Source of the DNA: Escherichia coli
GTDB taxonomy: Bacteria > Pseudomonadota > Gammaproteobacteria > Enterobacterales > Enterobacteriaceae
Length of the DNA: 64,000 bases
Assembly (NCBI RefSeq): GCF_016026235.1
Contig: NZ_CP065613.1
Strand: one strand, 5' to 3'
Shown piece by piece: positions 38,457-53,214 of the stretch. Below the pieces are notes generated by a model. That model did not search any database and was not told the origin of the DNA. It saw only the letters and a program-made list of their open reading frames with translations. Within the stretch, counting starts at the first letter, position 1. The number at the start of each line of letters is the position of its first letter. The translations under genes were made by a program, and so were the position numbers.

Positions 38457-39695
38457 GTGAAGATTTATCTGGTCGGTGGTGCTGTTCGGGATGCATTGTT
38501 AGGGCTACCGGTCAAAGACAGAGATTGGGTGGTGGTCGGCAGTACGCCACAGGAGATGCTCGACGCGGGCTACCAGCAGGTAGGCCGCGATTTTCCTGTG
38601 TTTCTGCATCCGCAAACGCATGAAGAGTATGCGCTGGCACGTACCGAACGGAAATCCGGTTCCGGTTACACCGGTTTTACTTGCTATGCCGCACCGGATG
38701 TCACGCTGGAAGATGATCTTAAGCGTCGCGATCTGACCATTAATGCGCTGGCCCAGGACGATAACGGCGAGATTATCGACCCGTACAACGGTCTGGGCGA
38801 TCTGCAAAATCGTCTGTTGCGCCATGTTTCCCCCGCTTTTGGCGAAGATCCGTTACGCGTTCTGCGCGTGGCGCGTTTTGCTGCGCGTTATGCCCACCTC
38901 GGTTTTCGTATTGCCGATGAAACTCTGACGCTGATGCGCGAGATGACCCATGCGGGTGAACTGGAACACCTGACGCCTGAACGGGTATGGAAAGAGACGG
39001 AAAGCGCCCTCACCACCCGCAATCCCCAGGTGTTCTTCCAGGTACTGCGCGATTGCGGTGCACTTCGCGTTTTATTCCCGGAAATTGACGCCCTGTTTGG
39101 CGTTCCGGCCCCTGCCAGGTGGCATCCGGAAATCGACACGGGTATTCATACCTTCATGACGCTCTCAATGGCGGCGATGCTGAGTCCGCAGGTTGATGTC
39201 CGTTTCGCAACTTTATGCCACGATCTCGGTAAAGGACTGACGCCGCCAGAACTTTGGCCGCGTCATCATGGGCATGGCCCGGCGGGTGTTAAGTTAGTGG
39301 AACAACTATGCCAGCGTCTGCGCATGCCAAATGAAATTCGCGATTTAGCCAGACTGGTGGCTGAGTTTCACGATCTCATCCACACCTTCCCAATGCTGAA
39401 CCCAAAAACCATCGTCAAATTATTTGATTCCATCGATGCCTGGCGTAAACCGCAGCGTGTCGAGCAACTGGCGCTGACCAGCGAGGCTGACGTACGCGGC
39501 AGAACCGGTTTTGAATCAGCGGACTACCCGCAAGGCCGTTGGTTGCGCGAAGCCTGGGAAGTGGCGCAGTCAGTGCCGACAAAAGCGGTCGTTGAAGCGG
39601 GATTTAAAGGTGTGGAGATTCGCGAGGAGCTGACCCGACGGCGGATTGCGGCGGTAGCCAGTTGGAAGGAACAACGTTGCCCAAAGCCTGACTGA
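38457..39695 (+). CDS. cca: CCA-adding tRNA nucleotidyltransferase
   Basis: 412-aa [19 protein letters not shown]... Confidence 0.95.
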
Positions 39696-39721
39696 GTATA
39701 AAACTAAACGTTAACACGAAC

Positions 39722-39835
39722 CATCCCCTCGCCCCTTCGGGGAGAGGGTTAGGGTGAGGGGAACAGACCAGCACCGGTGCGAACAATCACCCCCACCCCG
39801 GCCCTCTCCCTACAGAGCGAGGGAGAAAACCAGGC
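39722..39835. repeat. GC-rich imperfect inverted-repeat element (boxC-like) between cca and uppP
   Basis: cccctcgccccttcggggagagggttagggtgagggg ... cacccccaccccggccctctccc. Confidence 0.5.
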
Positions 39836-39857
39836 CTGCTCCCGAACCTTTTCTCAA

Positions 39858-40679
39858 TCAAAAGAACACGACGTACACCGCAGCCGCCACAATAAAGCGA
39901 TAAATGGCGAACGGGATAAACGAAATGCGCTTAATCAATTGCAGGAAGGTTTTAATCGCTATCAGCGCCACCACAAAAGCGGTGATAAACCCAACGGCAA
40001 ACATCGGGATATCGCCGGTTGTCAGGAAGCCCCAGCTTTTGTAGAGATCGAGCGCCGTTGCGCCCATCATCATCGGTACCGCCAGCAGGAACGAGAACTC
40101 GGAAGCAGCGTAACGGCTCACGCCCATCAGCATCCCACCTGAAATGGTCGCCCCGGAGCGGGAGAAACCCGGCCACAGCGCCAGACACTGGAAGCAGCCA
40201 ATCATAAACGCCTGACGATAGGTCATATCATCCAGACCCGGTGCGCGCGGCTCTTTCGGCTTCAGGCATTCGGCGGCAATCAGCAACAAACCGCCAACGA
40301 CCAGCGCATACATCACATTTATCGGGTTAAACAATGACTTAATCGTGTCGTGGAACAACAGCCCCAGTACCACCGCCGGAATCATCCCCAGCAAAATGTG
40401 GATCAGCGTTAAACGACCTTTGCTTTCTCCTTCGTGCTGCAACGGGCGGCCAAAGTGGATGCCAATCAGGCCAAACAGACGCCGCCAGAACATCACTACT
40501 ACCGCCAGAATTGATCCTAACTGGATCACAACTTCAAAGGTTTTCGCCGTGTCGCCCTCAAACCCCAACAAGTGACCGACAATAATCATATGGCCCGTGC
40601 TGGATACCGGCAGAAATTCTGTCAATCCTTCGACCACACCCAATATTGCCGCTATCAGCAGCGAGTGCATATCGCTCAT
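39858..40679 (-). CDS. uppP: undecaprenyl-diphosphate phosphatase
   Basis: ORF 39858..40682; start taken at second ATG (273 aa), multi-TM. Confidence 0.93.
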
Positions 40680-53180: not shown

Positions 53181-53214
53181 TGCCGGATGCGGCGTGAACG
53201 TCTTATCCGGCCTA
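53181..53214. repeat. REP element
   Basis: tgccggatgcggcgtgaacgtcttatccggccta matches the REP consensus. Confidence 0.7.

Follow-up and report, generated by a model that had tools for sequence, protein, structure and literature searches.

The GC-rich imperfect palindrome between cca and bacA (= uppP) in the window, the stretch of 64,000 nucleotides of Escherichia coli DNA analysed here, is an inverted pair of BoxC units, in which a type A unit is followed, after a spacer of 26 nt, by a degenerate type B unit. The pair is probably a tolerated repeat cassette without a dedicated sequence-specific function, whose consequences we infer to be structural. The palindrome had been predicted from its sequence to belong to a boxC-like dispersed family, and this was correct: its arms match the BoxC FASTA set of Petrillo et al. 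(2008), which gives 22 K-12 members, the copy between fabI and ycjD being eco:9. It is thus an already known repeat, whose A unit is catalogued, and an ordinary copy of its family.

The two flanking genes are convergent, as the original prediction had stated, with an intergenic spacer of 162 nt (39696-39857) between them. RefSeq gene calls were taken from strain E2865, in which the region is 100% identical to the window. The palindrome itself is real, since positions 39724-39825 fold as a long imperfect hairpin, and the inner short hairpin that had been noticed within it is a perfect 10-nt palindrome in the central loop. The features of the locus are given in Table 1.

Table 1. Features of the cca-bacA locus, by position in the window
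Feature	Position	Strand	Basis or remark
cca CDS	38457-39695	+	TGA stop ends at 39695; ORF list and RefSeq annotation of E2865 region
Diverged left flank of BoxC pair, AAAACTAAACGTTAACACGAACCATC	39700-39725	+	Paralogous-pair alignment; putative boundary
Inner hairpin at arm level	39724-39734 with 39752-39762		Inverted-repeat search
BoxC/TM_ECO type A unit, CCCTCGCCCC-TTC-GGGGAGAGGG-TTA-GGGTGAGGGG	39726-39761	+ (G-rich)	Table S8 no. 182; BoxC FASTA match
Outer inverted-repeat pair	39726-39741 with 39808-39823		Inverted-repeat search
Main arms, GGGAGAGGGTTAGGGTGAGGG and CCCCCACCCCGGCCCTCTCCC	39740-39760 and 39790-39810		Inverted-repeat search; 21 nt, 81% complementary
Central A+B spacer, AACAGACCAGCACCGGTGCGAACAAT	39762-39787	.	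Includes palindrome GCACCGGTGC at 39771-39780
Degenerate BoxC/TM_ECO type B unit, CCCTCGCTC-TGTA-GGGAGAGGG-CCG-GGGTGGGGG-TG	39788-39823	- (G-rich)	Aligned with K-12 type B arms
A-rich tail, AGAAAA	39824-39829	+	Typical of type B outer end; GAGGG(A/G)GAAAA end conserved in paralogous pairs
Residual ancestral spacer downstream of bacA	39830-39857	-	Homologous to right flank of REP-bearing alleles (allele alignment)
bacA (= uppP), undecaprenyl-diphosphate phosphatase	39858-40679	-	ORF list and RefSeq annotation of E2865 region

A BoxC unit is ~36 nt long and consists of three blocks of 9-10 nt, in the order C block, short loop, G block, 3-nt loop, G block. The A arm (CCCTCGCCCCTTCGGGGAGAGGGTTAGGGTGAGGGG) is an exact fit to the TM_ECO pattern CCCTCNCCC-N3-6-GGGNGAGGG-N3-GGGNGAGGG. 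The B arm, read on the reverse strand from 39823 to 39788, departs from the strict pattern at one position each of blocks 1 and 3. Its clear homology to the type B arms of genuine pairs nonetheless marks it as a decayed member of the family. The loop rule, TTA in A and CCG in B, holds in the cca-bacA pair and in seven aligned pairs. The left main arm is an exact HPG1 21-mer, and the HPG2 21-mer (GGGAGAGGGCCGGGGTGAGGG) is found with one mismatch, A to G, on the - strand; with up to one mismatch allowed, both arms belong to HPG1/HPG2, and both have four runs of at least three Gs separated by 1-7 nt. Conservation of the central 26-nt spacer at yijF-gldA, alx-sstT, eutG-eutH, fepB-entC and ygfF-gcvP, each of which has such a pair, indicates that the A+B pair has been copied as a single unit of ~110-130 bp. 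To its left, the pair alignment places the diverged flank opposite AAAAGTGCTCGGACAGT, which borders other type A units with loose conservation, and in the allele alignment the diverged stretch is missing from the REP-bearing alleles of the spacer.

BoxC, the PIT element, the TM_ECO triplex motif and the HPG1/HPG2 G-quadruplex motif are four names for one element. The literature is split over them, not all of it cross-citing, and annotators and surveys for G-quadruplexes and triplexes keep rediscovering the element. Counting from 1992, when Bergler and co-workers reportedly gave an early description of BoxC, it has at least four separate descriptions. The name PIT elements was used by Hoyne et al. 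(2000) and Hoyne and Maher (2002), as these papers are quoted by Holder et al. (2015; PMC4666352). TM_ECO was found in 23 copies in MG1655, of type A with a TTA loop or type B with a CCG loop, among which are five inverted pairs, A with B every time and all intergenic; 3610 copies were counted across 262 proteobacterial genomes, Salmonella having none (Holder et al., 2015). Over 56 E. coli strains there were 62-63 loci, which were hypervariable compared with control loci, and the flanking genes had no functional association (Holder et al., 2015). The work on HPG1 and HPG2 covers K-12 alone, does not link them to BoxC, PIT or TM_ECO, and found no match of the HPG motifs to a CollecTF transcription-factor motif (Kaplan et al., 2016; PMC5100583).

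The cca-bacA locus is itself in a published table and therefore carries little weight as a discovery. Entry no. 182 of Table S8 is the A-arm sequence at 3465928-3465963 of strain SE11 (Holder et al., 2015). Positions 3465748-3466209 of SE11 are 100% identical to 39546-40007 of the window, so that this entry is the type A unit described here. The B arm is missing from Table S8 because of its two deviations from the strict TM_ECO pattern; the locus is catalogued as a single unit, whereas it is actually an A+B pair with a decayed B arm.

The additional copies to be expected of a dispersed family were found genome-wide. In a blastn search, the 120-nt element had matches in 5407 of 5426 complete E. 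coli genomes, at 1-28 places per genome with a median of 16. Within the 64-kb window the HPG1 21-mer had no second match at up to three mismatches (0 expected by chance), and the family is thus visible only on the scale of the genome. Full-length paralogues with 84-88% identity lie at yijF-gldA, alx-sstT and eutG-eutH, a half element lies at gntP-fimH, and a single unit with an exact HPG1 21-mer lies at fabI (envM)-ycjD of K-12. These five and the copy at cca-bacA, the six that were inspected, are all intergenic. The B-lineage strain AS19-RrmA- has a copy with 98.3% identity to the element of the window. In strain ZJ3920 the gntP-fimH element consists of a type A unit and the initial 12 nt of the pair spacer (AACAGACCAGCA), which run directly into a REP; from its sequence it looks like a truncated pair in which the B arm was replaced by a REP. 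The number of copies depends sharply on lineage, from 1-2 in S88, SE15, UM146 and PMV-1 to 26-30 in SE11, IAI1 and W (Holder et al., 2015, Tables S7 and S8).

At cca-bacA the BoxC pair is present in 1259 of 5426 complete genomes (23%) and the element is absent from the spacer in 77%. Carriers were defined by coverage of at least 80% of a 462-nt query spanning both gene ends; in non-carriers the gene ends match and the spacer differs. E. coli has at least six alleles of this spacer. The window strain has the A+B pair in a spacer of 162 nt, and E2863 has the same pair in 156 nt, having lost one G-tract through a 6-bp deletion of the slippage type. AHM8C212RI has one REP (89 nt), K-12 MG1655 three REPs (180 nt), MDR_56 four REP-like units (187 nt), and ABU 83972 a different REP-like hairpin (79 nt). 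The left junction of the alleles is GAGTAT and the right one CCAGGC, and the BoxC pair occupies the exact slot of the single REP in AHM8C212RI. No match to the REP consensus GCC[G/T]GATGCG...CGCATC[C/A]GGC was found in the cca-bacA spacer of the window. Elsewhere in the window REP-like matches occur only at 53182 and 53971 (GCCGGATGCGGCG and GCCGGATGCGACG), and ordinary REP/BIME elements are thus present in this strain as well.

The same exchange is seen at two other loci. At eutG-eutH 306 genomes have the pair, and others have from one to several REPs; at yijF-gldA the pair is present in 641 genomes, and DH5alpha has two REPs. The variable cassette at these two loci is bounded by direct repeats of ~8 bp, (G)CAATAAA(T) and GGGAGTTT. 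Both types of allele share the repeats, which are therefore not a target duplication specific to BoxC; they look like the remains of an old target duplication that persisted while the content of the cassette changed. Insertions of boxC in the BIME regions of natural isolates are said to have been described by Bachellier and co-workers in 1997. The cca-bacA spacer is a clean case, with one slot that holds a BoxC pair in 23% of E. coli and REP/BIME elements in the rest, and it bears on the turnover of repeat families.

Such exchanges raise the question of mobility. Quite unlikely, in our judgement, is a mobile cassette, the A-spacer-B pair of ~130 bp, which targets REP/BIME slots or is exchanged with them by a shared or related mechanism, or, in a broader form of this proposal, a core that is a recognition site for a protein. 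If it were true, BoxC pairs and REPs would be competing, interchangeable modules. Comparison of the alleles at cca-bacA gave no target-site duplication, flanking direct repeat or empty site. When the pair was considered as a MITE, arms resembling terminal inverted repeats were present, and the rows sampled at cca-bacA, eutG-eutH and yijF-gldA contained no empty allele. BoxC matches were found in 404 plasmid records; the two plasmid copies inspected had no transposase nearby, and both lie among genes of chromosomal type. This agrees with the lack of a transposase context for TM_ECO (Holder et al., 2015). A search of phages gave three marginal records. The Campylobacter jejuni phages A18a (MG065686.1) and A11a (MG065691.1) each have three places resembling a BoxC unit, with ~86% identity, which was unexpected given that both host and phage are AT-rich.

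The core was also sought in more distant organisms. A scan of one genome per species, outside the Enterobacteria, for GGGAGAGGGNNNGGGTGAGGG gave at least 120 stretches. The matches listed all lie in MAGs of very distant organisms: Afipia, Pseudolabrys, a Hyphomicrobiales MAG, Candidatus Contendobacter and another gammaproteobacterium, Deltaproteobacteria, an unclassified 'bacterium' and Candidatus Gracilibacteria. A complementary C block lies 2-10 nt upstream in 130 of the 139 matches listed, though the search did not require it; two of the three core blocks were fixed by the search pattern, so that block 1 alone is independent evidence of conservation. An inverted partner was present within 150 nt in 43 of these 139. 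In distant MAGs the core is multi-copy, each time inside a longer lineage-specific repeat, as in the two ~90-bp subfamilies of GL140_5_metabat_74. These matches extend the published 'proteobacterial' range of the element, and a core shared by Enterobacteria and Candidatus Gracilibacteria alike may be recognised by something conserved.

RNA folding, which had been proposed as a check on the palindrome, predicted a stable structure on both strands. The RNA of the whole 162-nt spacer folds with -62.4 kcal/mol (z = -4.02) on the + strand and -74.2 kcal/mol (z = -2.95) on the - strand, and the 102-nt element (39724-39825) folds as DNA with -27.4 kcal/mol (z = -4.29). Each molecule was compared with 200 dinucleotide-preserving shuffles, of which none was equally stable in any case. 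With RNAalifold, seven paralogous pairs, which share the spacer, gave a consensus hairpin of 31 base pairs, none of which had compensatory changes (covariation term +1.03), the seven sequences being nearly identical and the power of the comparison low. To the extent that seven such pairs allow, the hairpin is then attributable to the inverted layout of two related units, and the covariation analysis, limited in power by few, near-identical sequences, gave no sign of a selected RNA structure. No Rfam family reached its gathering threshold; the best matches, to miRNA-hairpin models, scored 15-26 bits where 58-168 were required, and were dismissed as generic hairpin matches.

The palindrome had also been suggested to act as a bidirectional terminator or an mRNA stabiliser. 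As a terminator, the long GC-rich hairpin would stop RNA polymerase arriving from either side and insulate the two genes, an explanation to which the position of the pair lends itself, 29 nt past the cca stop and 35 nt past that of bacA, as does the high stability of the predicted hairpin on both strands. Of the 16 HPG1 copies of K-12, six separate convergent genes, compared with a single copy that separates divergent ones (Kaplan et al., 2016). Termination is nevertheless not supported, since the hairpin lacks a following U-tract on both strands and both Term-seq data from K-12 and the reports on PIT elements speak against it. In the test for an intrinsic terminator the hairpin is followed by GAAAACC on the + strand and by GAUGGUUCGUG on the - strand. 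A scan for the terminator consensus gave a single site, on the - strand and outside the pair, with a weak 5-bp stem (39845-39830) followed by TTTTCTCCCT; 1.1 sites would be expected from shuffles, and this one is therefore not significant. PIT elements are described as having neither promoter nor terminator activity (Hoyne and Maher, 2002, as quoted by Holder et al., 2015).

Transcript ends mapped in K-12 are of the same tenor. The Term-seq 3′ end of gcvP is at 3046123, at a hairpin of its own with a T-run, upstream of the BoxC pair at 3045989-3046087; among the ends listed none falls inside the gcvP or alx pairs, alx being possibly poorly expressed (Adams et al., 2021). The gcvP end is ~36 nt upstream of the ygfF-gcvP pair, so that this pair comes after the terminator and probably sees little transcription. 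Furthermore, the eutG-eutH pair of 306 genomes is within the eut operon, where efficient termination would be harmful. Termination as the role of the element is accordingly very unlikely.

A hairpin selected at the 3′ end could instead shield both mRNAs from PNPase, RNase II or RNase R, with BoxC pairs and REPs interchangeable in this role. Every cca-bacA allele that was read folds stably, with spacer minimum free energies from -23.7 to -91.5 kcal/mol. In a sample of 60 rows spaced evenly over 5429 records no allele was empty, all sampled alleles having at least one stable palindrome, and a BoxC pair replaces a REP at the identical position at each of the three loci checked. REP elements are well known as mRNA stabilisers, the reported example being the malE-malF REP studied by Newbury and co-workers in 1987, and this was counted in favour of a protective hairpin. 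The family is dispensable, however, in that S88, SE15 and UM146 have only 1-2 units, and single units, the majority of its members, fold to a short hairpin only. Nor do the seven pairs have the compensatory changes that would support it, and the ygfF-gcvP pair is outside the mature gcvP mRNA, whose mapped 3′ end is upstream of it. On this evidence a selected protective hairpin is rather unlikely.

The G-rich arms suggest another role, that of a switch between G-quadruplex, triplex and hairpin, in DNA or RNA, through which ions or supercoiling would control nearby genes or replication. Besides the G-runs of both arms, the three-block architecture is conserved across phyla among the matches listed. 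In vitro, single-stranded oligonucleotides of HPG1 and HPG2 form a G-quadruplex and switch between K+ and Mg2+ forms, as judged by CD (Kaplan et al., 2016), and a single-stranded oligonucleotide of the TM_ECO consensus forms a stable intrastrand purine-motif triplex by CD and NMR (Holder et al., 2015). PIT elements are also quoted as blocking DNA polymerase in vitro (Holder et al., 2015). Double-stranded TM_ECO, however, remains a duplex, and the triplex found no support from DMS footprinting in vivo (Holder et al., 2015). When the complementary arm is present, the long hairpin is ~45 kcal/mol more stable than the G-quadruplex: with ViennaRNA and G-quadruplex energies, the inter-arm hairpin gave -59.7 and -65.1 kcal/mol compared with -12.6 and -16.7 for the alternatives. 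The G-quadruplex was therefore rejected as the dominant fold of the pair. The lack of functional association among flanking genes and the 77% of genomes in which the cca-bacA spacer has no such element further argue against a switch, which we regard as highly improbable.

A tolerated repeat cassette is left as the best explanation. The pair would be either self-propagating or exchanged by recombination, and may persist because the room between two convergent 3′ ends is permissive. Transcripts of cca or bacA that read into it would gain a very stable stem-loop of ~100 nt, which could hinder 3′-to-5′ exonucleases and would not be a canonical terminator. The capacity of the DNA to form a cruciform, triplex or G-quadruplex would make the spacer prone to slippage, deletion and replacement of the cassette. 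Following Holder et al. (2015), such instability may be the source of the many cca-bacA alleles, the diversity being observed directly and its mechanism proposed. Two features of the sequences tell against neutrality. Conservation of the 9-nt blocks is extremely high and reaches into distant phyla, which could indicate a binding partner, and a strong palindromic element is found in every sampled allele, as selection for a 3′ hairpin would also be expected to produce.

Among known systems, the pair is closest to BoxC/PIT/TM_ECO itself, with which it shares the exact pattern of the A arm, the intergenic site and the inverted A+B layout seen at five K-12 loci; it differs in the degenerate B arm, and K-12, the strain studied experimentally, is without the element at cca-bacA. 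As in the described HPG1/HPG2 pairs, an exact HPG1 on the left and a near-HPG2 on the right lie on opposite strands within 50 bp, but in the cca-bacA pair the predicted inter-arm hairpin outcompetes the G-quadruplex. MITEs such as ERIC/IRU and Correia elements are similar in their length of ~110-130 bp, long imperfect terminal inverted repeats, multiple intergenic copies, polymorphism for presence or absence, and long stem-loop on transcription. They differ in that the cca-bacA pair has neither target-site duplication nor empty site in the alleles compared and most BoxC members are single units; to our knowledge there is also no parental IS or transposase for BoxC. REP/BIME elements have no similarity to BoxC in their consensus and are simple palindromes, in contrast to a three-block hairpin with a mirror G block, and we know of no RAYT-type transposase for BoxC comparable to theirs. 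Both are nonetheless short, GC-rich, palindromic, dispersed and intergenic elements that are concentrated at the 3′ ends of genes and highly polymorphic between strains, and REPs occupy the identical slot in other strains of E. coli, including K-12 with its three.
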